DNA of 64,000 bases. Source: Escherichia phage AV111. The notes below the pieces were generated by a model. It saw only the letters and a list, made by a program, of their open reading frames with translations. It did no database searches and was not told the DNA's origin. The DNA is taken from the sequence record OR352941.1. One strand, given 5' to 3'. Position numbers and translations under genes: made by a program. Below are positions 2,795 through 56,317 of this stretch, in pieces (position 1 is the first letter of the stretch; each line of letters starts with the position of its first letter).

Positions 2795-3365
2795 AAAAGT
2801 TTCGGATTTGTTCCCAATTCAGAGAACGAAGATTATTACGAGAGTACTGAATTACTTCAATACCGGCTTGTTTTAGAATGTCTGCCCAATTTTCAGGAGA
2901 TCTGTCATATAATTCTGCGTATACAACCTTTTTAATACCTGACTGTGTAATAGCTTTAGTGCAATCAGGACATGGAGAAAGCGTCGTATACAACGTAGCA
3001 CCTTCAATAGAATTACCTTTACGAGCTGCAAACAAAATTGCATTCAGTTCCGCATGGATTTCATTATTAGCAGACCATGCACTATGAGCGGCCCGATGTT
3101 CTTTAGCCAAAACAAAATTATCTGCCCGTCCAAATGCTGTAGTGCCTTCTTTATGCCCAGCAACGATGACCGGGCTTGGTTTATTCTTCAACCAACCGTT
3201 TTCGGATGCATGTTCACAACAGTTAACACCACCGGCCGGGCTACCGTTATACCCAGTAGAAATAATGCGCCCATCTTTTTCAATGACTGCGCCAACTTTC
3301 CATGAACAACATTTTGATTCTTGAGAAATCAGATATGCAATCTGAAGGTATGTGCTAGCTTTCAT
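2784..3365 (-). CDS. cd: dCMP deaminase, 193 aa
   Basis: Zinc-binding deaminase motifs CEHASE (HAE) and SPCPDC (PCxxC); length matches T4 Cd. Confidence 0.9.
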   Translation of the reverse strand: MKASTYLQIAYLISQESKCCSWKVGAVIEKDGRIISTGYNGSPAGGVNCCEHASENGWLKNKPSPVIVAGHKEGTTAFGRADNFVLAKEHRAAHSAWSANNEIHAELNAILFAARKGNSIEGATLYTTLSPCPDCTKAITQSGIKKVVYAELYDRSPENWADILKQAGIEVIQYSRNNLRSLNWEQIRNFCGE

Positions 3366-4357
3366 TATTGAACCTTATTAATATAAGTTAACAGCTCTTT
3401 AGTTTGTTCCCAACTGATGCACGCATCGGTAACGGAAACGCCATAGGACATATTATCAGAAATTTTTTGATTTCCTTCATGTAGGAATGATTCTATCATA
3501 ATTCCTTTGACCAAATCATTAGCTGCTAAATTTTTACCAATACCAATTTGATTGCTATAATGCCCAGCAGCGTTTGCATGGCTACAGTCAACCATTACAT
3601 AATGATTCAGACCTACTGCACTTGCTTTGTTAGAAGCTTCTTGAATATCAGAAGAATGATAGTTCGGGCCGTTGGTCCCGCCACGCAATACGATATGCGT
3701 ATTCTGATTACCTTCAGCTTCAACAATGCCTACAGTACCATCGACGTCCATACCCATATACCGATGTGGCCAGGCGGCACTATACATCGCGTCTGTAGCT
3801 ACTTTAATAGAACCATTGGTTGCGTTCTTAAAGCCTACGCACATCGGTAGACCTGAAGCAATTTCACGATGTGTCTGACTTTCAGTCGTACGGGCTCCAA
3901 TAGCAACCCATGAGAAAATACCAGAAAGATACTTAATCGTGAATGGGTCTAATACTTCAGTTGCTAATGGAAGTCCCATACGTAGAAGTTTACGACACAA
4001 TGTTCGTGCAACTATAAGACCGTGGTTCATATCAAAACTTCCGTCAAGATATGGATCATTTACAAGACCTTTCCAACCTACGGTAGTTCGAGGCTTTTCA
4101 AAATAAACGCGCATCACTAACAGAACATTAGGAAGACGAGTTTGAAGTTCAGCCAGACGTTTGCCGTATTCAACAGCAGCAATAGGGTCATGAATTGAAC
4201 AAGGACCTACAACAATAAGTTTGCGTGGGTCTTCACCGTTCATAATCGAATTAACTTGTTCGCGATGAGAAGCCACTTGTGATGCGTAAGCTTCCGACAA
4301 AGGAATAATCTCAGCCAGTTCTTTTGGAGAAATAAGTTTTCTGACGACAGGTAACAT
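3365..4357 (-). CDS. 3-deoxy-D-arabino-heptulosonate-7-phosphate (DAHP) synthase, class I (AroG/F/H-like), 330 aa
   Basis: Hallmark motifs LIVVGPCSIHDP and RVYFEKPRTTVGWKGL; not part of the T4 reference gene set as I recall it. Confidence 0.8.
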   Translation of the reverse strand: MLPVVRKLISPKELAEIIPLSEAYASQVASHREQVNSIMNGEDPRKLIVVGPCSIHDPIAAVEYGKRLAELQTRLPNVLLVMRVYFEKPRTTVGWKGLVNDPYLDGSFDMNHGLIVARTLCRKLLRMGLPLATEVLDPFTIKYLSGIFSWVAIGARTTESQTHREIASGLPMCVGFKNATNGSIKVATDAMYSAAWPHRYMGMDVDGTVGIVEAEGNQNTHIVLRGGTNGPNYHSSDIQEASNKASAVGLNHYVMVDCSHANAAGHYSNQIGIGKNLAANDLVKGIMIESFLHEGNQKISDNMSYGVSVTDACISWEQTKELLTYINKVQ

Positions 4358-9920: not shown

Positions 9921-10423
9921 TTAGAAATATTTTTTGTATGAATTGATTACATTTTGGTCTACATCATTATCAATTTGTGCGACAAGATAAGAACTGATTT
10001 CAACTTCTTGTGGGGCTGCTTGAACCAAATCAGAGTTCAAATACTCACGAATCCATGGAATAGGATGACGAGTTGATACGTCTTTAAGAGGACATGGCAG
10101 ACCACAACTACGCATACGAGACACGGTAAGATAATCCACAAATTCACTTAGGATTTTAACATTTAGACCTGGAAGAGCACCATCTTTAAACAAGTGTTCA
10201 GCCCATTCTTTTTCTTGAGCGTTAACTTCCATGAAAATATCAACTGCTTCTTGTTCACACTCTTGAGCAATTTTGACCCATTCATCACCGTCTTCGCCAT
10301 CTTGTAAAGCACGAATAATATATTGAGTGCCCTTGAGGTGAAGCTGTTCATCACGAGCAATGAACTTCATAATCTTGGCATTACCTTCCATGATTTCCAT
10401 GTTCTTATGGAAGTTAAAGGTAC
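9921..10423 (-). CDS. nrdB: ribonucleotide reductase small subunit NrdB, exon 2
   Basis: Frame continues CTFNFHKNMEIMEGNAKIMKFIARDEQLH... when joined to exon 1 at the GCG-T / GT-ACC junction; ends ...SYKKYF. Confidence 0.8.
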
Positions 10424-11514
10424 CGTTATGTTCGATTGAGCTCGCTAATTCTCAACCCGTTCTCTTATGAACTGCTACATATTACTATGCAGACCAGACT
10501 ATATCACAATCCCGGAGGGATTCTCCCCATTTCGAGTCGCTTGACCCTACGTCCGAAGACTAGTCGTTGAACCTTGCTTTGCAATTGTCGCCGTGCCATC
10601 GTTTATATGTTGATGGTGATAAATCTTTCTTATCACAATATGGACAATTCAATTGAATTCTATTTGGATTTAATTTACATCTGTCATTATGTTTTAGATA
10701 AAATCCAGGACCTTTACCAATGTGACCACAGAAATCACATGTGATTTCTTTTTGTGCAGGATGGGTCCCGTTCTTAACCATTTCTAATGTTTTTGCTGAT
10801 GTTCTTTTCTTATGGTCTTCTGATAAGAAATGATGTGAACCGTCATTTACCCGTTTTGATTGAGTTTCTGACTGCATTTTACCACCGCAAAATACATGAG
10901 TACCTTCTTTTATAGCTGCAATATTACGTTCTTTGACTTTTGCAACATGCTCAGCTTGTTGAAAATTATGTATACCTAATGCAACTCTATTTAAATTAGA
11001 TTTACGTTGTATTTCACCACCTAAAAGATGAAATGTACCATTTTCTATCTTAGATTTAATAGAGGCAATATTTTTAGCTCGTACTTCAGGGATATTAAAA
11101 ATCTGGATTTCTCTAGATTTTGCGGCTTTAGAAGCTAATTCAGAAATTTCTTCAGGAGAATATTTCATTCTAAGCTTTATAGCATGACAAGCCTGGTAAT
11201 CTTTTTGAGCTAAATGTATATCATAATGTTCCTGTATAGAAAGGCACATCAAATTATCTAAATCATTATTTTCACGGTTACCGTCTTTATGATGGATTTC
11301 GTATGTTCTTCCATCAGAATCTTTAGGTATAGGTCCGTTAGCATCTATCCAAATTTTTCTATAGTTCAATTGTGCATCCTCTTAAAAGTATAATCATATT
11401 TATATTATACTAATTAAAGGTGCAAGCAAAACCTTGGCTGCTAGTTTTCCTATAAAGGACTTTCCAGCAATTAAAGGAGTTTTCGATAAACGTTACCGTT
11501 TAAAGGCGCATTTT
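10424..11514 (-). mobile_element. group I intron in nrdB (about 1.09 kb) carrying an I-TevIII-like homing endonuclease ORF
   Basis: Exon 1 ends with U (…UUU GCG U), intron ends with G (…CAUAACG); splicing restores codon UGU and the NrdB reading frame. Confidence 0.7.
10560..11369 (-). CDS. intron-encoded HNH homing endonuclease, I-TevIII-like, 269 aa
   Basis: HNH motif region (YEIHHKDGNRENNDLDNLMCLSIQEHYDIH) plus C-terminal Cys-rich zinc finger (CDFCGH ... CPYCDKK); inside the nrdB intron. Confidence 0.8.
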   Translation of the reverse strand: MNYRKIWIDANGPIPKDSDGRTYEIHHKDGNRENNDLDNLMCLSIQEHYDIHLAQKDYQACHAIKLRMKYSPEEISELASKAAKSREIQIFNIPEVRAKNIASIKSKIENGTFHLLGGEIQRKSNLNRVALGIHNFQQAEHVAKVKERNIAAIKEGTHVFCGGKMQSETQSKRVNDGSHHFLSEDHKKRTSAKTLEMVKNGTHPAQKEITCDFCGHIGKGPGFYLKHNDRCKLNPNRIQLNCPYCDKKDLSPSTYKRWHGDNCKARFND

Positions 11515-12190
11515 ACGCAAAAGATACATAAAAACGAATTGCTTCTAAGGCATTAATAACGTGCAAACAGAGGTAAAGAGATTTCATTAGCTCACGCTTC
11601 CAATATGTCTCATGCTCAATAGCATCTTCAATAACGTCTTCGTCTGCATTAATTTCTTTTTGGTATTCGATATCAGCTTTAGCGTTTTCCCAATAACGAG
11701 CTTTAACCAGAACATCATCATAATATCGTCCGATAGATTCGGCACGCTTCATAATAGCTTCATCTAATACAATCTCATCAAACACCTTCGATGGATCTGT
11801 ATAAAGATTTCGCATAATATGAGTATATGAACGAGAGTGAATAGTTTCACTGAAAGTCCATGTAGCAACCCATGTATCTAATGAAGGGTCTGAAAGCAAT
11901 GACATAAGTACCGCAGATGGTGCTCTACCTTGGATAGAATCTAATAATGATTGATACTTAAGGTTGTTGGTAAAGATGTCCTGTTGGAACTGTGGAAGCT
12001 TATTAAACTGGGCCGAATCCAACATCAAGTTTACTTCCTCGGGACGCCAAAAGAACGAGAGCTGCTTTTCGATAAGCTCTTCAAAAACTTTATGACGCTG
12101 AATATCATACCGTGCGAGGCCAAGACCAGAACCAAAGAACATCGGTTCATTCAAAACATCGACTTGTTGTGTGTTAAAAACTGTACTCAT
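11515..12190 (-). CDS. nrdB: ribonucleotide reductase small subunit NrdB, exon 1
   Basis: Class Ia R2 sequence ... ALEAIRFYVSFA; the in-frame stop immediately after is intronic. Confidence 0.8.
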
Positions 12191-12245: not shown

Positions 12246-13235
12246 TTAAAGCTTACAAGCAGAACAATCTTCTGCTTTAGGTGTTTCTAATTCATAGTCG
12301 TCTGTACCAGACCCATCACGAGTGTTATGATAGTAGAGGTTTTTTCCGCCAAAGTACCAGAAGTAAAGCAGATCGTCAAGCATTACTGACATTGGCACTT
12401 TACCTTTCTCAAATACTGCAGGGTCATAGTAAGTATTAGCAGAAGCAGATTGGCACACCCATTTCAACATGATAGCAACTTGGGTCAAATAAGGTTTATT
12501 ACCTTTCTTAGCAAGTTTCCACGCGTAGTCGTAAAGACTCATGTTATGTTCTATATTAGGAACAACCTGACGGAAGTTGCCTTCTTTAGATTCTTTAATA
12601 CTTACTGGACCACGTGGTGGCTCAATCCCGTTTGTAGAGTTTGATACTTGACTGCTTGACTCACAAGGCATGAGTGCAGACAACGTTGAGTTACGAATTC
12701 CATGTTCTTTGAGTTCAGCTCGAAGTTCTTCCCAGTCACAGACGTAGTTCGGGGCTGCGATTTGGTCAATCTTTTTATTGTACCAGTCGATAGGTAATTC
12801 GCCTCTAGACCATTTAGTGTCTGAATAATACTCGCAACATCCTTTTTCTTTGGCGAGTTTGATTGATGCTTTGATAAGGCCATATTGCAATCTCTCAAAC
12901 AATTCATGAGTCAAATCGTTAGCGTCTTCATATGAAGCAAAGTTAGAAGCTAACCATGCGGCATAGTTCGTCACACCAACACCGAGGTTTCGACGCTTTT
13001 TAGCTTTTAAAGCTTCTGGAACCGGATAATCTTGATAGTCTAACAGGTTATCAAGTGCACGTACTTGTACTTCAGCAAGTTCATTAATTTTATCTTGGTC
13101 TTGCCAATCAAATTTATCTAATACAAAAGCAGATAATGTGCAAAGGCCCACTTCACCTTTGTTTTCAATAACTTGTATTGTTGTATACTCATCATCTTCG
13201 TAAAATTCATCTACAAATTCATAATCAATATTCAT
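12246..13235 (-). CDS. nrdA: ribonucleotide reductase large subunit, C-terminal piece (nrdA-b), 329 aa with about 26 aa novel N-terminal leader
   Basis: From GEVGLCTLSAF onward aligns to the C-terminal third of class Ia NrdA (…NSTLSALMPCESSSQVSNSTNGIEPP…, C-terminal CSACKL). Confidence 0.8.
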   Translation of the reverse strand: MNIDYEFVDEFYEDDEYTTIQVIENKGEVGLCTLSAFVLDKFDWQDQDKINELAEVQVRALDNLLDYQDYPVPEALKAKKRRNLGVGVTNYAAWLASNFASYEDANDLTHELFERLQYGLIKASIKLAKEKGCCEYYSDTKWSRGELPIDWYNKKIDQIAAPNYVCDWEELRAELKEHGIRNSTLSALMPCESSSQVSNSTNGIEPPRGPVSIKESKEGNFRQVVPNIEHNMSLYDYAWKLAKKGNKPYLTQVAIMLKWVCQSASANTYYDPAVFEKGKVPMSVMLDDLLYFWYFGGKNLYYHNTRDGSGTDDYELETPKAEDCSACKL

Positions 13236-13935
13236 TTAATTCTTCTACCTTTTTTCGAGATATTCCTAGAGCTTTAGATGCTCGATGTATTGATTGATAT
13301 TCTATACCGTTTATTTTTACAGCAATTAAGTTATGGGGTTTTAATCCCTTTGGATGAGGTTTACTGACGTATTCTTGATTATCGTTTTCAGAGATATTAT
13401 CAAGCTTTCGACACTTAAAGCCTTTATGTTGAGACCTTTTGCCTTTGCATACGGCCGACATTGCCGAAGCATTGAGTGAATGTAGTTCGCAAAATTCTCT
13501 TAGGCCTTTATGGATTTCTTCATGACCGTCCGGGAAAGTAAATACCCAAGTTGTTTGAAGTTTTTCTCTATGCTCGTCAGTTACCGGAATACCTTTGTTC
13601 CAAGCTGGTTTGCCTTTATTATTTTCAGATACAGAAATAGCCAATTTTCTTCTAAGCCACCCATGGCGTTTATTGGTGTTCTTTCGTTCAATATTATCTT
13701 CAGAATAAACACACATCATATTAGCGGCAAATACCAATTTATGATTATCTGGATATATCTTTACTAATAATTGATGAGCTATGTAATGCTCTTCGGGTGT
13801 CAAATCTACCAGGTTTTCCTTTGTATCAGAACCACCAATACACAGAGGTATAATATGGTGTGATTCGGTATAGCAATCTAATTTTCTGTTCTTAGCTTTA
13901 GAAATAAGGTTATTGTAAATTTTAGAATAATCCAT
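13225..13935 (-). CDS. HNH homing endonuclease (Mob-like), 236 aa, inserted inside nrdA
   Basis: N-terminal Mob-family signature MDYSKIYNNLISKAKNRKL...HHIIPLCIGGSDTKENLVDLTPEEHYIAHQLL; own start, overlaps the nrdA-b start by 11 nt. Confidence 0.8.
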   Translation of the reverse strand: MDYSKIYNNLISKAKNRKLDCYTESHHIIPLCIGGSDTKENLVDLTPEEHYIAHQLLVKIYPDNHKLVFAANMMCVYSEDNIERKNTNKRHGWLRRKLAISVSENNKGKPAWNKGIPVTDEHREKLQTTWVFTFPDGHEEIHKGLREFCELHSLNASAMSAVCKGKRSQHKGFKCRKLDNISENDNQEYVSKPHPKGLKPHNLIAVKINGIEYQSIHRASKALGISRKKVEELNEY

Positions 13936-13980
13936 AACTTTTCCTCTTGTTATGGATTATTTATTAACGGCCTGTGTACT

Positions 13981-15405
13981 TTATTTGCTTTGAATTATAC
14001 CGCCAGGATTAGCTTCATAAAACTTAGCTACATCCGACTTCTTAATTTTGATTAAACGGGTTTGTTGGCTATTCACATCATTAGTTGGAATAGCGATTTC
14101 ACAACATAAGTTACTTTGACGAATTGGAGCTTTTTCACGAATAAATGGAGTGTAGTTATTCGTGTTATCAACAAACTGCGGATAAATTCGAGCAGTGCCA
14201 GAACGTTCAGTCATGAACAATTCAAAGAGTTCTAGTGCTTTGATTCTTTTCTTTCTGATTGTTGGGTCTTTTTCAGCTTTCTCATAAAGCTCATGGAATT
14301 TATCTTGATCTTCAAAGAACGAGTAGTATAGTTCGCCTGACATTTCGTGAGGGCTAAATAAAGTAATATAATCATTTTTACCAAGGCGTTCCATCATAAG
14401 GTCATTAATCTGAATTCCGTAGTCCATATGTCGAATACGGTTTTCATCTACGCCTTTGTTATTTTTCAGAACTAATAGGTTCTCTACTTCTAAGTGCCAC
14501 ATTGGATAATACGCTGTAGCAGCACCACCACGAATACCACCTTGAGAACAAGATTTTACTGCAGTTTGGAAATGTTTCCAGAATGGAATAACACCCGTAT
14601 GTCGAACTTCACCCATACCGATCTTAGAACCTTCTGCACGAAGCATACCAACGTTGATACCGATACCAGCTCGTTTAGAAATATATTCAATAATTGATGC
14701 TGAAGTTTTGTTAATAGATTTTAACGAATCACCGGCTTCAATAACTACACAACTAGAGAACTGGCGAGTCGGAGTACGAGCACCTGCCATAATTGGAGTA
14801 GGCAATGAAACTTGATGAGTAGAAACGGCATCATAAAAACGAATAATATGTTTCAAACGGTTATGAGTTTCGTCTTGGTGTAAGGCCATACCAATAGCCA
14901 TGATAGCAAACTGGGGAGTTTCATAAATCTTCCCAGTTGTTTTATCTTTAACTAGATATTTTTCTTTAAGCTGCATAGCACCAGCATAAGTCAGGTCAAA
15001 GTCTCGGTCATGTTTAATCTGTGAATCGAGATAAATGATTTCTTCTGCTGAATATTGAGACAACAGCTCAGGGTCATATTTGCCTTCATTAACACAGTAA
15101 GAAATATGGTCGATAAAAGCAGGCGGTTCAAACTGCCCGTATACATCTTTACGAAGTGCAAACATTAGCCCTTTGGCGGCGACATACTGATAATCAGGTT
15201 CTTCGACAGAAATCAAGTTAGCTGCAACTTTAATACAAATCTTCTGAATATCTTTGGTGCTCATCCCATCGACAAGATGGGTCTTAATTTCTTCGTACAA
15301 TTCATATGGGTCAATTTGTGTTCCTTCACATTGCCAAGTTAAGACTTTAATAATTTTCTGTGCATCAAAATTTTGGGATACACCACTGCTCTTATTTACT
15401 TGCAT
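13981..15405 (-). CDS. nrdA: ribonucleotide reductase large subunit, N-terminal piece (nrdA-a), 474 aa with about 29 aa novel C-terminal tail
   Basis: ATP-cone/R1 N-terminus through the active-site strand NLCCEIAIPTNDVN, then diverges and stops. Confidence 0.8.
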   Translation of the reverse strand: MQVNKSSGVSQNFDAQKIIKVLTWQCEGTQIDPYELYEEIKTHLVDGMSTKDIQKICIKVAANLISVEEPDYQYVAAKGLMFALRKDVYGQFEPPAFIDHISYCVNEGKYDPELLSQYSAEEIIYLDSQIKHDRDFDLTYAGAMQLKEKYLVKDKTTGKIYETPQFAIMAIGMALHQDETHNRLKHIIRFYDAVSTHQVSLPTPIMAGARTPTRQFSSCVVIEAGDSLKSINKTSASIIEYISKRAGIGINVGMLRAEGSKIGMGEVRHTGVIPFWKHFQTAVKSCSQGGIRGGAATAYYPMWHLEVENLLVLKNNKGVDENRIRHMDYGIQINDLMMERLGKNDYITLFSPHEMSGELYYSFFEDQDKFHELYEKAEKDPTIRKKRIKALELFELFMTERSGTARIYPQFVDNTNNYTPFIREKAPIRQSNLCCEIAIPTNDVNSQQTRLIKIKKSDVAKFYEANPGGIIQSK

Positions 15406-30337: not shown

Positions 30338-31132
30338 ATGGCAGTTGAAGGACCGTGGGTTGGATGGTCTGCGAGGGTACAAACTGGAGATCCTTGGATG
30401 GGTGGTGCTGCGCAGAGATTGAGAATGGGAATTCCGTTTTGGATGAGTAATATGATAGGTCGATCTGTTGAAATAATTCACACGCTTGGAGCAGACCATA
30501 ACTTCAATGGTCAATGGTTCCGAGATAGATGTTTTGAGGCAGGTAGTGCGCCTATAGTGTTTAATATTACAGGTGATTTAGTGTCTTATAACAGGGACGT
30601 CCCGTTATTCTTTATGAATGGAGATACGCCTAATGAATACGTTACTTTGAATATTCACGGCGGAGTTCACATGTGGGGCCGCGGTGGCCAAGGTGGTTGG
30701 ACACACTCAGGCGGTGACGGTAACGGGCAATGGGGCGGTGATTGTATTGTTAACCATATAGGCACCCGTTTACGTATATGGAACTACGGTGTTATCTGTG
30801 GCGGCGGTGGCGGCGGCGGTGGTATCGCTTATCGTCCTCACTCTGGTGCTAACTGGCAGGATATTGGCGGTGGCGGCGGAAGACCATTTGGCCCAGGAGG
30901 TGGAGGTGGCTATTCTGGTGGTGGAGCTTCTTATGAAGGCCCGGGTGGTGGATATAACTACGGTAACGCTCACTCTGGGCATGGTGGCGATGCAGGCGGC
31001 GCAGGTCAAAACGCCTGGCAAGATGGCGGGAAAGCGCTTAAAGTAGGAGCAGGTGGCGGTTCTGGTGCAGCTGTTGCAGTGTCATCCCCGATGTGGGGAG
31101 CAACAGGTACTATCTATGGCCCATGGCTATAA
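30338..31132 (+). CDS. 38: T2-type tail fibre adhesin gp38 with glycine-rich motifs, about 264 aa
   Basis: Conserved N-terminus (…[39 protein letters not shown]…) and poly-Gly segments (GGGGGGGG, GGGGG); ATG at 30338 with GGAGG 5 nt upstream. Confidence 0.8.
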
Positions 31133-31148
31133 TACGAAAGTATTAAAT

Positions 31149-31156
31149 TATAAATA
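31149..31156 (+). promoter_or_regulatory. late promoter TATAAATA for holin gene t
   Basis: Exact TATAAATA 19 nt upstream of the t ATG. Confidence 0.6.
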
Positions 31157-31174
31157 TCTTTAAAGGAGAAAAGT

Positions 31175-31828
31175 ATGGAACCAAAAGTAGGATTTTCATT
31201 AACAGACCTACTTTTTGGACTTCTTGATAGAATTTTTAAAGATACTACTTCCGGGAAAGTAGTTTTTTCCCGGGTCCTAGTCGTAATATTATTGTTCTTT
31301 ATGACATTGATTTGGTATAAAGGCGAGTATATTCTAAACTTTTATAAAGAGACTACTTATGCCTCTTATACTGAAATGATTAGACAAGACCAGGACAATA
31401 GATTTAAAATTGCGGCTATCGAGCAGCTCCGAATAGTGCATTCTTCTTCAGGCGCAGACTTCACAGCGGTATATTCTTTTAGACCTACCAACATGAATTA
31501 TTTTGTGGATATGGTGGCTTATGAGGGTAAATTACCGGAAACGGTAGACGCAAAAAATACGGGAGGGTTTCCGATTGACAAAACGTCAGTAGAGTATATG
31601 GCAGGTGTTAACGGGAACTATTTTGAATCCACTACAGAAACTGTGTTCCTTCCTACAAAGAAGAAAACACAATTCACGTATATGTTTTCATGCCCGTTTT
31701 TTAATTTGGATAACGTCTACGCCGGCTCGATATCATTATACTGGTATGATATCAAACCGGATTTAGGATTTCCTAGACTTTCGTCTATGTGTGGTCAGGC
31801 CGGGAGGACATTAGGTCGAACTCGTTAA
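31175..31828 (+). CDS. t: holin T, 217 aa
   Basis: N-terminal TM segment then large periplasmic domain; …FVDMVAYEGKLPE… and …SCPFFNLDNVYAGSISLYWY… match T4 T as recalled. Confidence 0.9.
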   Translation: MEPKVGFSLTDLLFGLLDRIFKDTTSGKVVFSRVLVVILLFFMTLIWYKGEYILNFYKETTYASYTEMIRQDQDNRFKIAAIEQLRIVHSSSGADFTAVYSFRPTNMNYFVDMVAYEGKLPETVDAKNTGGFPIDKTSVEYMAGVNGNYFESTTETVFLPTKKKTQFTYMFSCPFFNLDNVYAGSISLYWYDIKPDLGFPRLSSMCGQAGRTLGRTR

Positions 31829-32100
31829 AAATTGGAGGTATACATCATTAAGTAACGGTGTATATCTTCATACCCTTCATTAAATTGCTCAATAAGAGTA
31901 TCACGTTCATCTTCAGTTAAAGACTTAAAGAGTTTATTAAAAGATAGACCATTAAGTTCCTTTCCATGTTCATTACGAATACCTAGCTCGTTCAAAAAGG
32001 CAATAAACTCATCACGACGTTGCATGATGTCTTCACAATCCGTTTTAATTAAAATAGAAACAATAGTGGCAATTTCAGAAACGATTTCAATTTTAGTCAT
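31825..32100 (-). CDS. asiA: anti-sigma-70 factor AsiA, 91 aa
   Basis: …ATIVSILIK…FIAFLNELG… and …LIEQFNEGYEDIHRYLMMYT… match T4 AsiA as recalled. Confidence 0.85.
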   Translation of the reverse strand: MTKIEIVSEIATIVSILIKTDCEDIMQRRDEFIAFLNELGIRNEHGKELNGLSFNKLFKSLTEDERDTLIEQFNEGYEDIHRYLMMYTSNF

Positions 32101-32411
32101 TTTAATTTACTCAAGTATTCAATAGGACGTTCATTATTCAATAAGAATATTGTAACACTATTCTTCTAGGTTGTACATATGATTTTTCATCCGTACAACA
32201 TATTCCTGATATATCTCTTCTACTGGTTCCTGGAACTTAAAATCAGCTCCCAGGAATTCCTCAAAGCACTCCTGCTCACGTGTACGCATACCTGATATAG
32301 TATTCTCTAAGTTATGACTAATAGCCTTTACCCTTATGTTTCTGTTTACGCTTAGACTCTTTAAAGTTTTTCTTCTTGTCCTTATGGACAGACGCCTTAT
32401 TGAAATCGTGC

Positions 32412-32693
32412 TTAGCTACCAGATTGTTCATGCAATCTCCTTAATTGATATTCGAGAGAACTAATAATTTCTTTATTAGTTGCGATATACATATCACGCA
32501 GGAAAGGCTTCAATCCTACCATGCTTTCATAAAATGTCTTAGAACTAATATCCTTTATATATTCATGGTCTAAAGCGTCCCATGCCGGTTGGTTAACATA
32601 AGTACCCCAGTTATCTTCCATCATAGCATTCAGGCGTTTGATATGATTAATGTGGGCTTCGATTGCGTCAATTTGGAGTTGTTTAAGATTCAT
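32412..32693 (-). CDS. hypothetical protein, 93 aa (arn position)
   Basis: ORF track; sits where T4 has arn but sequence identity not confirmed. Confidence 0.45.
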   Translation of the reverse strand: MNLKQLQIDAIEAHINHIKRLNAMMEDNWGTYVNQPAWDALDHEYIKDISSKTFYESMVGLKPFLRDMYIATNKEIISSLEYQLRRLHEQSGS

Positions 32694-41279: not shown

Positions 41280-41480
41280 TCACAAGTTACGTTTAAAAAT
41301 TTCTGCTACTTCAAGAAGTTCTTCTTTAGTAGCTGTATCGGTTTGTATTTTATATCGAATTTCCTTAAAGCGTTCTTTAAAGGCTTCAGCTGATTCGATA
41401 TCAAAAAATCTTTGGATAAGCCGGAATTCCCGGAGCACTGCTTTATCAAAAAGTTCCAAGTCCACGTTATACGTTCTCAT
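41280..41480 (-). CDS. hypothetical protein, 66 aa (rIIA.1 position)
   Basis: ORF track. Confidence 0.5.
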   Translation of the reverse strand: MRTYNVDLELFDKAVLREFRLIQRFFDIESAEAFKERFKEIRYKIQTDTATKEELLEVAEIFKRNL

Positions 41481-41504
41481 AATATTCTCTTCAGTAGATT
41501 CCTA

Positions 41505-41557
41505 GGGCACTATTACTAAAGACCATATAATTTATCATCTTATGTGTAATAGTGCCT
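41505..41557 (-). other. 12-bp inverted repeat (GGGCACTATTAC / GTAATAGTGCCT) around a 29-nt AT-rich loop containing a TATAAT-like hexamer
   Basis: arms at 41505-41516 and 41546-41557, 11 of 12 complementary. Confidence 0.4.
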
Positions 41558-41572
41558 CAGGCGATTCAGGAT

Positions 41573-42673
41573 TTACGCTGTGAAGATTTTATCCCACATC
41601 GCAACAACTGCATCTCGATTATACTTCTTCCATACTGCTTCAGCACGTTTAACTCGAGCTTCGTATGTGTCAGTGAATTCTAATACAGCTTTTGTGTAAA
41701 GCGCAACTACTTCTTTCTTAGGAGTAGAGGAATCAATTTCTACACGCACAGTATCTGGGTCGTATTCGAATGTCGCATGAGGATAATCCTTAAAAACTAA
41801 CTGGATTACAGGGACACCTTTAGAAATGGCTTCAATAGAACTATTCTCTACCGTACCTGTGTCAGGACACGTATTAATAAGTGCTTTAGCTGTTTTAAGA
41901 CGTTCCATGATTTCACTGTGTGGAGCATCAATAATAACAGGATATTTAGCTGGTGGTGCCCATTTGCTTGGACAATAACCAATACCATTTTCGCCTAGTG
42001 CTTTAATTGCTTCAAGAGCAACATCAGTGCGACGCATCTTAGTGTCATAACGTTGAGCACTAATAATCAAATCAGTTGCCGGGAGAACTTCTGGCTTTTC
42101 AGACAAACAAATAACCGGGTAGTCATCAGGTTCAAATAATGGATTTTCGCGCCAGTAGTCATAATCAATTTTGTCAGTCAGACCTGAAGTCATATAACAA
42201 TATTTGCGTTCAAATTCACGGAAGGCTTTAGTAGGAGCATAGCTCTTCCCGCCGTTCTTGTGAATCTGGATAGTCTGATCCCAAATTTGAACAATACCAC
42301 GAGACACCGGTTCAAACGGCGTAGCCATAAAATTCTTATGAACTTTAGAGAGTCCAGCATCTTTAATTGCCTGAACGGTTAGTTTAGTCGGTTCCATAGT
42401 AACAACAAAATCGTATTCATGGATGCCGGCTAGTTCAACAATCTTACGAGCCATAGTATAACTCATACCTAGACTGAATTTAGTCAGATGACCAACAGGA
42501 TGATGATTAACCTTCCAATCACCAAACGTGTCATTATCAAAGCCGATATAATCAATATCAGCACCGATGGACACAAGATATTTCAACACATTTAAATGTA
42601 CTGCTTCAAGACCACCTTGTACACGGTCAGGATTAAATGGGACTGCACGAGATGGGATAAACATAACTTTCAT
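41573..42673 (-). CDS. putative glycosyltransferase (GT-B fold, GT4-like C-terminal motif), 366 aa
   Basis: C-terminal ETGTVENSSIEAISKGVPVI resembles the E-x7-E / EAxxxGxPVI sugar-donor motif of retaining GT4 enzymes; no counterpart in the T4 rIIA-39 interval as I recall it. Confidence 0.45.
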   Translation of the reverse strand: MKVMFIPSRAVPFNPDRVQGGLEAVHLNVLKYLVSIGADIDYIGFDNDTFGDWKVNHHPVGHLTKFSLGMSYTMARKIVELAGIHEYDFVVTMEPTKLTVQAIKDAGLSKVHKNFMATPFEPVSRGIVQIWDQTIQIHKNGGKSYAPTKAFREFERKYCYMTSGLTDKIDYDYWRENPLFEPDDYPVICLSEKPEVLPATDLIISAQRYDTKMRRTDVALEAIKALGENGIGYCPSKWAPPAKYPVIIDAPHSEIMERLKTAKALINTCPDTGTVENSSIEAISKGVPVIQLVFKDYPHATFEYDPDTVRVEIDSSTPKKEVVALYTKAVLEFTDTYEARVKRAEAVWKKYNRDAVVAMWDKIFTA

Positions 42674-42698
42674 AATTAAGCCTTATTAAAATTAAAAT

Positions 42699-42718
42699 GA
42701 AGCTCCCGAAGGAGCTTA
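42699..42718 (-). terminator. hairpin AAGCUCC-UUCG-GGAGCUU 3' of the HNH gene
   Basis: aagctcccgaaggagctt at 42700-42717. Confidence 0.4.
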
Positions 42719-43528
42719 GGACATCCAACACATTTTATAACCTTTGCAGGTTCTGTTAGGATTATTTAATGCTTTCAATATATTAGAAGACCCTATATCT
42801 AAATACTCTCTTAATTCATAAAGATAGTTAAAATCAATAGTTTCACCTGTTTTTACACTTGTGATTCTTATAGGCCTTCTTTCATATTTAGATTTATACA
42901 ACTCTCTAGTCTTAGCTTTAGTTTCTTCTGACCTAGGAGTGTATGGTTTAAATCCTTTTGTTTTAAATGTTTCCATTCTTGATTTAGTTATTTTATCCCG
43001 GTGTTCTTTTGTTTTTACAGGTGCTTTTCGCCCATTCTCCCGAGATAACTTGTTGGCCTGTATTATTTTATCTATTGCTTCTTGCGTATGAGTTTTACCA
43101 TAAAATGGATTTAATTCGCCTATACGTTGTGAAGCAATATGTGACATTAATTCTCTTGTTGCTTTAGTATGTTTTTTACCTTTAAATGGGTTGCCATTTT
43201 TAGCAATCCATTCTTTCATAAATCTAGAGTGCTCTTTAGAGAATTCTTGTTTAAGCCAATCATAATCTCTAGAATTTCTAGCTCCCATGTAAAAAGCTCT
43301 AATAGCCATAAGCATAGAACGGTTCTTATGAATTTTATAAAGCAATAAATGGGCGATAAAATGCTCTCTAGGGGTCATTTTAACTAGATTTGATTTAGCA
43401 TTACTCCCGCCCATAGATTTAGGCAAAATATGGTGAGTTTCAGTATAATTAGGAATAGTGCTGCGGTTTTTAGCCGCAGCGATAAGTTTATCATAAATTT
43501 TACGATAATTCATTATCCTAGCATCCAA
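42716..43528 (-). CDS. HNH homing endonuclease (MobA-like), 270 aa
   Basis: Mob-family N-terminus MNYRKIYDKLIAAAKNR...HHILPKSMGGSNAKSNLVKMTPREHFIAHLLL plus NUMOD-like repeats (NPFKGKKHT, NPFYGKTHT). Confidence 0.8.
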   Translation of the reverse strand: MDARIMNYRKIYDKLIAAAKNRSTIPNYTETHHILPKSMGGSNAKSNLVKMTPREHFIAHLLLYKIHKNRSMLMAIRAFYMGARNSRDYDWLKQEFSKEHSRFMKEWIAKNGNPFKGKKHTKATRELMSHIASQRIGELNPFYGKTHTQEAIDKIIQANKLSRENGRKAPVKTKEHRDKITKSRMETFKTKGFKPYTPRSEETKAKTRELYKSKYERRPIRITSVKTGETIDFNYLYELREYLDIGSSNILKALNNPNRTCKGYKMCWMS

Positions 43529-45333
43529 TCTTTACGGAGTTCAGGGTCGTTACCCATGAGCATTTCAAATAGTTCTTTCCAATTTTCAGGAAGTTTAACT
43601 ACGTCGTACACAGGGTTTTGAATCATTTCTTTATATTCATCTCGCTGAAGTGAGCCCAATCCCTTGATGTATCGAATACTATGCTTAGGCAGTGTATCTT
43701 TAACTTCTTCATACTCAGCTACAGTATAAAACCATTTTTGAGTTTTGCCAATTTGTGCAATAATTACAGGCGTTTTAACAAAGCGAATACGTCCTTGTTC
43801 AAACAATTCAGGCCAATTACTAAAGAAAGCAAGCAAAGCCGGATAAATGCTTCCAAGACCGTCATGATCGGCATCGGTCATAATTGCAATATTACGATAG
43901 TTCGTATTCTCTGCCTTTTCACCAAGAATAAGACCTGTGATAGCACAGATATCAAAGAGCTCTTTGTTCTTCATCATATCAGCATATGACATACCCCAGC
44001 TATTCATCACCTTACCACGTAATGGGAATCCGCCGTGTAGTTCACGGTCACGAACATCAATGAGATAACCAATTGCCGAATCACCTTCTGTTAAGAACAA
44101 TGTTGTATCTGCATCTTTACCACATTGGTTAGCTTTAATATGCTTATGAACCTTAGCTTTAGTTGCCTTTTTAGCTGCTTTAGTTTCTGCAGCCTTTTCT
44201 GCTGCCAATTTACGAGCTAATGCTGCTTCAACAATAGGCATAATCAAGGCTTCGTTTTTAAGAAGTGCCTGAGCAATTTTCTTAGCATCTAATTGGATAT
44301 GATTACGAATATCACCATACGTTGACGTTAAACGTTCTTTAGTCTGAGAATCAAAACGCATGTTGCTCATGTCTCTAATAAACATCAACATTGTGAGACA
44401 TTCTTTAACACGAGCTTTAGTGACTTCAATACCCTTATATTTCTTTTTAATACCTGGCAAAAGATGTTCGCAGATATCATCCATTACGCATTCAACATGA
44501 TGACCGCCGTTTTTAGTATGGATGTTATTCACATAAGTTAAATGACGGAAGCCATCTGGTGATGTTGTGAATGCTATAGAGACTTTATCATTTTCTTGAA
44601 TGATGTTATCTTCACCAAATTGTTTAGCAAATCGTTTAAAATTACCATCAACCTTTTTACCATTAAATGTGAACTTGATATCAGGATAAACGACTGCCAA
44701 TGTTTGAAGTCGATCTAAAGTAATATCTAAATAAATTTGAGATAAATTATGCTCTTCAAATGAAGAGAAATCAGGAGTGAAGATTACTTTAGTGCCTTTA
44801 CATTTAGATTTCTTAGAAGACCATGATTTGTTTTCCATTCCGTTTGAACAGTTAACAGTGATTTCATTTTCGCCATCTGACGTGATGCCTGTAAACAACG
44901 TAGAGAAGATATTAGTTAAACTACTCCCGACGCCGTTCATACCACCAGTCTTGCGTTCAGAATCATCACCAAAGTTACCACCAGCCTTTGGAATAGTCCA
45001 GGCTGCTACAGGCCCAGGAATTTGTTCACCTGTTTGGTCGGTAACTAAACCTTGAGGAATACCACGTCCGTTATCTTCCACCGAAACTTGATTATTTTTA
45101 ATTTGCACGTCAATTTTATTTGCAAACTTAAATGATGTACGAATAGCTTCATCAACCGAGTTGTCAATAATCTCATCGATTAATTTAACCAGACCAGGAA
45201 CATATTCAACTTGTTGATATTTACCAAACAAAAAACGCTCGTGGGCTTCTTTGGCCGAAGAACCAATATACATGCCACTACGTTTCTTAATATGTTCTAC
45301 ATCTGACAGTACCTTAATTTCATTTTTAATCAT
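43513..45333 (-). CDS. 39: DNA topoisomerase II large subunit gp39 (GyrB-like ATPase), 606 aa, single uninterrupted ORF
   Basis: GHKL ATPase N-terminus and TOPRIM region; corresponds to T4 39 plus 60 combined. Confidence 0.9.
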   Translation of the reverse strand: MIKNEIKVLSDVEHIKKRSGMYIGSSAKEAHERFLFGKYQQVEYVPGLVKLIDEIIDNSVDEAIRTSFKFANKIDVQIKNNQVSVEDNGRGIPQGLVTDQTGEQIPGPVAAWTIPKAGGNFGDDSERKTGGMNGVGSSLTNIFSTLFTGITSDGENEITVNCSNGMENKSWSSKKSKCKGTKVIFTPDFSSFEEHNLSQIYLDITLDRLQTLAVVYPDIKFTFNGKKVDGNFKRFAKQFGEDNIIQENDKVSIAFTTSPDGFRHLTYVNNIHTKNGGHHVECVMDDICEHLLPGIKKKYKGIEVTKARVKECLTMLMFIRDMSNMRFDSQTKERLTSTYGDIRNHIQLDAKKIAQALLKNEALIMPIVEAALARKLAAEKAAETKAAKKATKAKVHKHIKANQCGKDADTTLFLTEGDSAIGYLIDVRDRELHGGFPLRGKVMNSWGMSYADMMKNKELFDICAITGLILGEKAENTNYRNIAIMTDADHDGLGSIYPALLAFFSNWPELFEQGRIRFVKTPVIIAQIGKTQKWFYTVAEYEEVKDTLPKHSIRYIKGLGSLQRDEYKEMIQNPVYDVVKLPENWKELFEMLMGNDPELRKDWMLG

Positions 45334-55144: not shown

Positions 55145-55666
55145 TTAGTAACCATTATCCTGACGTTCAAAGTTGTGTTGGTTTTTCAAGTAGTAAAGTT
55201 TAAAGATTTCTTCTGCTGTAAGACCAAGACCCTGGAACATATTCAGAACGAAATGAAGAATATCAATCATCTCAAATTTAATTTCAAGCTGGTCTTCAGG
55301 AGACAGTTCATCGATACGACGATTTCGATATTCAGCATGTTGTGCTTTCCATGGCTTCCATACAGAGCTAGCGGCTTTTTCACCATTGCTCATACCGCCA
55401 AGTGAAGTCAGCAGTTCACGGAATTCGTCATCAATATAATCTTTCTGATTACGCAGCCAATCAACAACATCGCCTGCAGTGGCCAATTCATCAGGATGTT
55501 TGTTATGTTCAGGCTTGTCATTTGCCAGACGAACCTGTAAAGATTTCTGCATATCAAGCATTACCTGCAGTGGGTCTTTATCTTCGTGAATCAGAGCATT
55601 AAAATAAGCTTCTTCTGCTTTATCAACGCCTTCGATCAGTTGACTACATTCGTTGAAATGTGGCAT
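55145..55666 (-). CDS. 56: dCTPase / dUTPase gp56 (dCTP pyrophosphatase), about 173 aa
   Basis: MPHFNECSQLIEGVDKAEEAYF...DPLQVMLDMQ...ELATAGDVVDW... near-identical in outline to T4 gp56; own SD AAGGAAA upstream of ATG 55664-55666. Confidence 0.85.
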   Translation of the reverse strand: MPHFNECSQLIEGVDKAEEAYFNALIHEDKDPLQVMLDMQKSLQVRLANDKPEHNKHPDELATAGDVVDWLRNQKDYIDDEFRELLTSLGGMSNGEKAASSVWKPWKAQHAEYRNRRIDELSPEDQLEIKFEMIDILHFVLNMFQGLGLTAEEIFKLYYLKNQHNFERQDNGY

Positions 55667-56317
55667 GTTATTTTCCTTTCTTATGAAGTTTTCTATCATA
55701 TGTCTATAGCAGATATTAGGATAACCTGCCTTGACAGCTATTTTATTAAATTTTGTGCGCTTAGGTCTATTATTATAAACCCATAATTCATAAAGCGCAT
55801 CATAACTATTCCATATTTCTCCTCGCCTAGGATTTGGTAAACCATATCGAGGCGAATTTTTACCGCTAAATCTTCCTTTTCGGGCTTTACTCATATTAGC
55901 CTTGGCTTCATCGGATATAATTTTACCTTTATGAGCTAGACGCATTTTAGCTTTAGTTTCTTCTGGAGTCTTTTTACCTTTAATCCATGACGGCTTGCCA
56001 TATCTAGGATTATTTTCACCCGAGAAAAGAACAGAGTTTTGGATTTTAAGGGTTTCTATTAATCTACTTGTTAATTTAACACCTTTATTATATCGCATTA
56101 AATTTACAGCATAATGCAATCCTCTCACATCTGGATATATTTTAGTTAATAATCTATGAGCTATAAAATGCTCACGCGCAGTTAACTCAACAAGATTGTT
56201 TTTGCCATCTGCTCCTCCCATACATCTAGGAATTATATGATGGCGTTCTTTATATCCGCAAAGCCGCCGGCATTTAGCTTTTGTAATTAAAGCAGAGTAA
56301 ATTTTTTGGTAATTCAC
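55145..56317 (-). CDS. Mob-like HNH endonuclease ORF (N-terminal about 217 aa) reading in frame, with no stop codon, into gene 56
   Basis: ORF track gives one 390-aa frame; N-terminus MNYQKIYSALITKAKCRRL...HHIIPRCMGGADGKNNLVELTAREHFIAHRLL is the same family as the nrdA-internal and 39-adjacent HNH ORFs. Confidence 0.6.
   Translation of the reverse strand: MNYQKIYSALITKAKCRRLCGYKERHHIIPRCMGGADGKNNLVELTAREHFIAHRLLTKIYPDVRGLHYAVNLMRYNKGVKLTSRLIETLKIQNSVLFSGENNPRYGKPSWIKGKKTPEETKAKMRLAHKGKIISDEAKANMSKARKGRFSGKNSPRYGLPNPRRGEIWNSYDALYELWVYNNRPKRTKFNKIAVKAGYPNICYRHMIENFIRKENNMPHFNECSQLIEGVDKAEEAYFNALIHEDKDPLQVMLDMQKSLQVRLANDKPEHNKHPDELATAGDVVDWLRNQKDYIDDEFRELLTSLGGMSNGEKAASSVWKPWKAQHAEYRNRRIDELSPEDQLEIKFEMIDILHFVLNMFQGLGLTAEEIFKLYYLKNQHNFERQDNGY

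Follow-up and report, generated by a model that had tools for sequence, protein, structure and literature searches.

An orthologue of the RB69 DNA arabinofuranosyltransferase gp3 in Escherichia phage AV111: a probable chain-extending enzyme of cytosine arabinosylation beside an unrelated homing endonuclease gene

The open reading frame at positions 41573..42673 (minus strand) of the window, by which we mean the whole 64,000-nucleotide stretch of Escherichia phage AV111 (OR352941.1) that was analyzed, can be assigned with good confidence to the DNA arabinofuranosyltransferase of Mosigvirus phages known from RB69 as gp3 or ORF003c, and the enzyme most likely performs the second, chain-extending transfer. 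Its product shares 98.4% amino acid identity over 366 aa with RB69ORF003c/gp3 (NP_861693.1), and the comparison with RB69-type arabinosyltransferases recommended in the first-pass annotation led to an orthologue of exactly this kind. The literature and the PDB already cover this gene, the fold of its product and its probable role, and the window adds one more orthologue to them.

Compared with RB69, the coding sequence contains 60 nucleotide differences, with 50 synonymous and 6 non-synonymous codon changes, and is under purifying selection. This pattern of codon changes, the end-to-end match to PHROG 8302 ('unknown function'; E=5e-222, positions 1-366 of 366) and the occurrence of copies with at least 95% identity in 155 phage records identify the frame as a real gene and not a chance ORF. 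It starts with an ATG, 8-9 nt downstream of an AAGG ribosome-binding site, and ends with the stop codon at 41573-41575; in the protein alignment, the N-terminus lines up with the starts of all homologues. The enzymes of RB69 and HY126 are likewise 366 aa long, are 98% identical to the AV111 protein and share with it the leader hairpin and the place between rIIA.1 and gene 39; the 6 to 11 amino acid substitutions relative to these orthologues are mostly located in the inter-domain stretch 176-191. Unlike in RB69 and HY126, a homing endonuclease gene stands between the transferase gene and gene 39 in AV111. The location in the rIIA-39 interval, which had been recognized from the sequence at first reading, was confirmed and lies more precisely between rIIA.1 and gene 39, an order that is kept in RB69, HY126 and NRG-P0074. 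By blastn, the window follows RB69 collinearly (rIIB-rIIA-rIIA.1-ORF003c-39-...) up to uvsX. The downstream neighbor rIIA.1 (41280..41480, minus strand) was identified by the Pfam family T4_RIIA1 (E=3.7e-30). Upstream, the intergenic leader of the transferase gene (42674..42717, minus strand) comprises a hairpin, a T-rich tract and then the AAGG ribosome-binding site. The stable hairpin AAGCTCC-TTCG-GGAGCTT at 42700-42717 was detected in a scan for terminator-like structures, and a three-way alignment showed that RB69 has the identical leader immediately downstream of gene 39. We make no claim about a promoter, since a consensus scan around the transferase gene yielded 11 sites and thus no more than the 14.2 expected from shuffled sequence.

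The transferase family is small, restricted to phages and very diverged. Matches by tblastn were found in 211 of 50,697 phage records; nearly all of the 155 records with copies of at least 95% identity are named Escherichia or Shigella phages, and the few of them for which the taxonomy was looked up (RB69, NRG-P0074) belong to Mosigvirus. Another 55 matching records are Acinetobacter phages with two copies each at about 43% identity. No Pfam (E≤1) or NCBIfam (E≤0.01) family was matched by the transferase, so that none of the glycosyltransferase models of these collections (Glycos_transf_1, Glyco_trans_4 and others) recognized it. Only 15 hits, of which about ten are real, came out of an exhaustive search through 1.84 billion representatives with phmmer, and a word-indexed protein search yielded only 5 relatives. 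With so few relatives, no sequence bridge to bacterial glycosyltransferase families could be built. Two distant homologues come from metagenomes: P0011 resides on a 4.5-kb T4-like contig and P0009 within a structural-gene module, and both contexts are uninformative.

Structural comparisons were more productive in placing the protein among known enzymes. An AlphaFold2 model built from a 12-sequence alignment (mean pLDDT 91.1, pTM 0.87) shows alternating beta-alpha elements in two halves and predicts a two-domain GT-B fold of the GT4-like kind. A sequence match in the PDB was found with 9IQZ/9IR0, the glycosyltransferase of phage HY126 (98% identity, E=1e-247), and the same entries were the best Foldseek matches of the model (9ir0_A, 'phage HY126 glycosyltransferase with UDP', TM 0.94; 9iqz_A, TM 0.97). 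Since 9IQZ represents the apo form and 9IR0 the form with UDP, the GT-B fold and UDP binding are experimentally established for a near-identical protein, UDP binding being read from the title of 9IR0. Both entries were released on 2025-07-16; we take the work of He et al. on HY126, which appeared in Nat Chem Biol in 2026, to be the source of these crystal structures. The next matches, with E-values of about 1e-10 and TM scores of 0.6-0.66, were BGluT, LmbT, BshA, PimA, MshA and WaaG, and the Foldseek probability against bacterial GT4 enzymes was 1.00. In total, 250 PDB hits with E≤0.001 were obtained, the best 50 of which were all glycosyltransferases, mostly GT4-type GT-B enzymes; α- and β-gt of T4 were not among these best 50. 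The Foldseek search against GT-B structures, which had been suggested as a check, thus returned the GT-B fold and no non-GT fold, and the early view of the protein as a two-domain GT-B glycosyltransferase is borne out by the model, by Foldseek and by 9IR0.

With the bacterial GT4 enzymes (PimA, 2GEJ; BshA, 3MBO; MshA, 3C4Q; WaaG; BGluT), the transferase shares the GT-B architecture of two Rossmann domains and the E-A-x3-G-x-P-V-I ending of the donor-binding motif, whereas sequence identity is only 10-14%, the spacing of the glutamates is E-x4-E instead of E-x7-E and the proposed acceptor is glycosylated DNA. The motif reads DTGTVENSSIEAISKGVPVI and spans residues 271-290, beginning with D271. 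Invariant columns of the alignment define the conserved donor-binding segment P-DTGTVENSSIEAISKGVPV, codons 270-289, at 41807..41866 (minus strand), in which G273, T274, E276, S279, E281, A282 and G286 are invariant in the family. The invariant glutamates E276 and E281 form the E-x4-E pair, and the position eight residues before E281 is occupied by G273; the canonical GT4 spacing E-x7-E is absent from the transferase. Of the motif originally proposed for this region, the GxPVI part therefore stands, as the conserved G-V-P-V-I, while the initial glutamate is in fact D271 and the E-x7-E-like spacing was not found. Thomas et al. (2018) aligned Glu-281 to the ribose-binding Glu-311 of T4 α-gt (PMC6024577).

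The chemistry of the modification has been determined in RB69 itself. Thomas et al. (2018) detected arabinose in RB69 DNA, found no homologue of α- or β-gt and considered ORF003c the probable arabinosyltransferase, acting in the final step (PMC6024577). MS/MS and NMR analyses by Lee et al. (2026) identified the base in RB69 as 5-hydroxycytosine, not hydroxymethylcytosine (hmC), and the modified nucleoside as β-D-Araf-(1→3)-α-D-Araf-5-O-dC, accompanied by a mono-arabinosyl form (PMC13326640). In the scheme proposed by the same authors, gp46:47 is the first transferase and gp3 is 'β-arabinosyltransferase 2', with the role of gp3 marked as a proposal, and the proposed linkages are α to the base for the gp46:47 type and β-(1→3) between the sugars for gp3 (PMC13326640). 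As an independent result, a 2026 study of the Mosigvirus NP found arabinosylated 5-hydroxycytosine, with mono- and di-arabinosyl-dC in a ratio of 1:4. The phages Bas46 and Bas47 are doubly arabinosylated, and Bas46 without the arabinosyltransferase Aat is sensitized to a defense system. Deletions of Aat were reportedly described by Mahler et al. in Cell Host Microbe in 2025.

Mosigvirus phages replace dC by 5-hydroxy-dC, for which a flavin-dependent thymidylate-synthase homologue produces the mononucleotide; in the pathway that we consider most probable, a first, unrelated transferase of the RB69 gp46:47 type then places α-D-arabinofuranose on the 5-oxygen. The gp3 enzyme, whose C-terminal Rossmann domain binds the UDP-sugar, most likely moves a second D-arabinofuranose from UDP-Araf to the O3 position of the sugar already attached to the DNA. 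In RB69-like virions, the resulting β-D-Araf-(1→3)-α-D-Araf-5-O-dC is the predominant form of cytosine, and the disaccharide protects the DNA against restriction enzymes and other DNA-targeting defenses. Gp3 would probably carry out its transfer with retention, as the enzymes nearest to it in structure are GT4 enzymes of the retaining type. If UDP-β-D-Araf, the 1,2-cis sugar nucleotide, serves as donor, a retaining gp3 would generate the observed β linkage and an inverting first enzyme the α linkage.

Several comparisons bear on the question of which step is catalyzed by gp3. The two types of transferase resemble each other in their pathway, in the predicted donor and in a GT-B-like fold by published structure prediction (PMC13326640), but the gp46:47 type, to which DLP3 gp79 and Lazarus_075 belong, has no detectable sequence similarity to the gp3 type and is much more widely distributed, with 348 phage records (Escherichia, Acinetobacter, Klebsiella, Serratia, Enterobacter, Proteus, Yersinia and others) against 211 for the gp3 type. 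Acinetobacter phage Lazarus encodes two homologues of the transferase in tandem (Lazarus_072 and Lazarus_073, 43% and 41% identical to the AV111 protein), in a block with an A5P isomerase, a sugar kinase/pyrophosphorylase, a phosphatase, a ThyA homologue, the first transferase and a nucleotide kinase. Their counterparts gp76 and gp77 of DLP3 belong to the same full-length family (41-43% identity), contain the invariant motif and extend arabinose chains on DNA from UDP-Araf: together, they add a third arabinose to RB69 DNA, whereas none of the DLP3 transferases showed activity in vitro when used singly (Lee et al., 2026; PMC13326640). The Acinetobacter genes differ from the Mosigvirus gene in being tandem paralogues within the arabinosylation cluster that were duplicated after the split from Mosigvirus and serve tri-arabinoside formation, while Mosigvirus has a single gene, about 20 kb away from the cluster, and a di-arabinoside. 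The mono-arabinosylated phage Thanatos possesses one transferase, which is of the first type (PMC13326640). With no gp3-type gene in mono-arabinosylated, one in di-arabinosylated (Mosigvirus) and two in tri-arabinosylated phages (Acinetobacter), the copy number equals the number of arabinoses minus one, the pattern expected of chain-extending enzymes.

In a neighbor-joining tree, the Acinetobacter paralogues group together (57% mutual identity) and gp3 stands apart. Gp3 is therefore co-orthologous to both paralogues, which points to a later duplication as the origin of the third-sugar enzyme, and it is not specifically orthologous to the paralogue to which step 2 has been assigned. Given the requirement for both members of the DLP3 pair, a need for a partner may be shared by other members of the family, and the assignment of single steps may not be clean.

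The most serious alternative, which we nevertheless regard as quite unlikely, is that gp3 is the first, base-proximal transferase acting on hydroxylated cytosine, and that the protein of the gp46:47 type extends the chain or has another function. The choice of ORF003c as the arabinosyltransferase of the final step by Thomas et al. (2018; PMC6024577) can be quoted for this alternative. However, all 348 arabinosylation-type records that we found contain the gp46:47 type, whereas about 137 of these records, with Serratia, Klebsiella, Enterobacter and Proteus phages among them, lack the gp3 type, and the mono-arabinosylated Thanatos possesses the gp46:47 type only. The increase of the gp3-type copy number with chain length also argues against a base-proximal role, as do the DLP3 homologues of gp3, which extend the sugar chains of DNA that is already arabinosylated; no single DLP3 transferase, including the first-type enzyme gp79, acted on plain 5hoC DNA (PMC13326640).

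A second alternative is that the acceptor is not DNA but a host envelope glycan, a small molecule or a protein, and that the link to DNA modification is coincidental. The nearest structural relatives indeed use small molecules or lipids (BshA, PimA, MshA, WaaG and the tetrahydrobiopterin glucosyltransferase), and the two distant homologues on metagenomic phage contigs have neighborhoods unrelated to modification. We consider this alternative very unlikely, as homologues are embedded in the arabinosylation cluster and DLP3 gp76 and gp77 act on DNA. Furthermore, the family is confined to Mosigvirus and Acinetobacter phages, which, compared at the level of these groups, also contain the first transferase, and di- and tri-arabinose chains require additional transferases for which no other candidates have been proposed.

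The hmC glucosyl- or glycosyltransferase equivalent to T4 α-/β-gt that was envisaged in the first-pass annotation has a nearly negligible probability: the GT-B fold and UDP binding as in both T4 enzymes, a distant HHpred similarity to T4 α-gt (1XV5; Thomas et al., 2018; PMC6024577) and the annotation of some Acinetobacter homologues, by label only, as 'putative DNA α-glucosyltransferase' would fit such an enzyme, but the RB69 base was identified by MS/MS and NMR as 5-hydroxycytosine with arabinofuranose instead of hmC with glucose, in agreement with Mosigvirus NP, and the glucose-contacting residues of T4 α-gt are not conserved (Thomas et al., 2018; PMC6024577). The hydroxymethylcytosine acceptor thus has to be replaced by arabinosylated 5-hydroxycytosine, to which gp3 has been assigned for addition of the second arabinose. 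The broader suggestion of an alternative T-even DNA glycosyltransferase holds insofar as the protein is regarded as a DNA sugar transferase in place of T4 α-/β-gt (PMC6024577, PMC13326640, PMC13390438), although the gene had not gone unrecognized.

As a second-step arabinofuranosyltransferase, gp3 would still have much in common with α- and β-gt of T4 and with the β-α-gt of T2 and T6, which are phage GT-B enzymes as well, use UDP-sugars, modify DNA cytosines after replication and confer protection from restriction. The β-α-gt of T6 resembles gp3 most closely in adding a second sugar onto the first. The T-even enzymes differ from gp3 in transferring glucose instead of arabinofuranose, in modifying hmC instead of 5-hydroxycytosine and in the genomic position of their genes. 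Thomas et al. (2018) reported about 10% identity to the related gp306 of phage G and a similarity to T4 α-gt at the level of HHpred (PMC6024577).

The genes for the remaining parts of the pathway (dCTPase-independent steps, UDP-Araf synthesis, the 5-hydroxy-dCMP synthase and the first transferase) are probably located beyond the end of the window, as judged from near-identical genomes. The sequence of the window stops within uvsX, about 0.4 kb short of the position at which the cluster starts in RB69, and NRG-P0074, which has the same arrangement of transferase, HNH gene and gene 39 (98.8% identity over the HNH junction region), possesses both the transferase and the first transferase. Gene 56 (dCTPase) is found inside the window.

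The gene upstream of the transferase encodes a free-standing, MobA-like homing endonuclease of the HNH/NUMOD3 type (42716..43513, minus strand), identified by Pfam, PHROG 655 and junction alignments. Its ORF extends to a TTG at 43528, in accordance with the MobA-like HNH ORF 42716..43528 described at first reading, and the database-annotated ATG at 43513 gives a protein of 265 aa. Pfam detected NUMOD3 and weak HNH matches, and PHROG 655 is a homing endonuclease family. Gene 39 (43513..45333, minus strand) encodes the large subunit of topoisomerase II in the unsplit 39+60 form with 606 aa, as indicated by Pfam, the RB69 annotation and alignment. Relative to RB69, an insertion of about 0.8 kb is present at 42728..43521, which is also absent from HY126; 27 of the 187 records that match the junction region carry this HNH cassette. 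According to the junction alignments, insertion of the cassette took place within the final codons of gene 39. The original end of this gene, TGGATGTCCTAA (...WMS*), now closes the HNH ORF, the C-terminus of the gene 39 product changed from ...EWMS* in RB69 to ...DWMLG*, and the new stop codon overlaps the HNH start codon as TAATG. In front of the transferase gene, the backbone sequence with the hairpin and the ribosome-binding site has remained unchanged. Scans of the window with Rfam and for tRNAs found nothing, which excluded the possibility that the nrd genes are split by group I introns.

The Tequatrovirus fPS-90, a Yersinia phage, contains the cassette at 99-100% identity between rIIA.1 and gene 39, without a transferase gene apart from a 49-nt fragment. 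The tract shared by fPS-90 and the window is 1.3 kb long and 97-100% identical (42625..about 43924), compared with 62-88% identity outside it. Of the transferase gene it contains the first 49 nt and of gene 39 about 410 nt, with the hairpin and the HNH gene between them. Such a tract has the appearance of a homing co-conversion tract from a Mosigvirus donor. Together with the distribution of the cassette, it characterizes the HNH gene as an independent mobile element that is tied to gene 39. From these alignments, the HNH gene appears to have reached a locus that already held the transferase gene and to move on without taking it along. A mobile pair of transferase and HNH gene is ruled out by RB69 and HY126, which have the transferase without the HNH gene, and by fPS-90, which has the HNH gene without the transferase. 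The earlier suggestion that both genes arrived together is consequently contradicted by RB69 and HY126, by the presence of the cassette in only 27 of the 187 records and by fPS-90. We speculate that the cassette recently carried Mosigvirus DNA into T4-like phages and that in AV111 it could alter read-through transcription into the transferase gene and thereby the ratio of mono- to di-arabinose, but we consider this rather unlikely. If true, homing endonucleases would breach the genetic isolation that is credited to arabinose modification.

Through arabinosylated 5-hydroxycytosine, RB69-like phages resist many restriction enzymes and some CRISPR systems, and the modification also separates them genetically from T4-like phages. 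The locus in AV111 provides a clear example of an adjacent homing endonuclease as an unrelated passenger. The transferase gene itself probably decides whether one or two arabinoses are attached per cytosine and thereby which defenses are evaded or triggered, which is of relevance for phage therapy and for the sequencing or engineering of RB69-like phages.

Only one long stretch of the window, 30687..32428, gave no blastn match to the compared RB69 regions, and its RB69 counterpart at 158.7–160.9 kb contains the genes for the tail-fibre adhesin gp38, holin t and asiA as well as two small ORFs. The tail-fibre genes that precede this stretch form the most diverged block among those that could be aligned to RB69 (88%). 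An ORF of 330 aa at 3365..4357 was identified by NCBIfam matches as a 3-deoxy-7-phosphoheptulonate (DAHP) synthase of the AroF/G/H type (PRK12755, E=8e-137; TIGR00034, E=3e-128). It adjoins the dCMP deaminase gene, the surrounding approximately 1.1 kb are absent from RB69, and it is a predicted auxiliary metabolic gene.

Both ribonucleotide reductase genes are found in pieces. The nrdB region (9921..12190) comprises two ORFs, encoding the N-terminal (11513..12190) and the C-terminal part (9921..10400), whereas nrdB of RB69 is uninterrupted. The insert relative to RB69 is about 1.1 kb, and a 269-aa HNH_3 endonuclease ORF lies between the two parts (10560..11369); an Rfam scan of the window detected no group I intron. 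The nrdA region (12246..15405), which is about 0.9 kb longer than in RB69, is likewise divided into two pieces (13981..15405 and 12246..13235), between which a 236-aa I-HmuI/NUMOD-like endonuclease is encoded (13225..13935). A ribonucleotide reductase with 'genes in pieces' occurs in Aeromonas phage Aeh1, and the split nrdA in the window is similar to this arrangement.

Two features concern the putative DNA arabinofuranosyltransferase gene and its homologues. The 92-nt spacer between its stop codon and the start of rIIA.1 (41481..41572) carries a long inverted repeat, AGGCACTATTA ... TAATAGTGCCT, whose arms enclose an A/T-rich loop roughly 32 nt long. In the deposited genome of phage HY126 (PP658200.1, 3001..4101), the conserved G-V-P-V-I motif of the transferase has L288 and G289, whereas the HY126 protein sequence in the PDB has P-V at positions 288-289 like every other homologue; this mismatch probably stems from the sequencing or from the clone used.

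The free-standing HNH/NUMOD3 MobA-like endonuclease gene between the transferase gene and gene 39 (42716..43513) has a paralogue at 55145..56317, inserted immediately upstream of gene 56 (dCTPase) as part of roughly 0.64 kb that are absent from RB69. This second MobA-like HNH/NUMOD3 endonuclease starts with GTG (N-terminal sequence VNYQKIYSALI...ERHHIIPRCMGG) and continues in the same frame into gene 56 without an intervening stop codon, resulting in an ORF of 390 codons that may be translated as a fusion protein.

The first of these endonuclease genes lies within a 1.3-kb tract (42625..43924) that is 97–100% identical to positions 2508 to about 3810 of the Yersinia phage fPS-90 sequence. On one side of the endonuclease gene the tract takes in the leader hairpin and 49 nt of the transferase gene, and on the other side about 410 nt of gene 39. 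The records of vB_EcoM_F1, FN, FL12, BYEP01 and CJY920 contain an equally near-identical match, in which the first 16–25 nt of the query are missing. Outside the tract, the identity of gene 39 to fPS-90 falls to 62–88%. Judged by its sequence, the tract looks like the product of recent homing between genera with co-conversion, in which a Mosigvirus would have been the donor and the Tequatrovirus fPS-90 the recipient.
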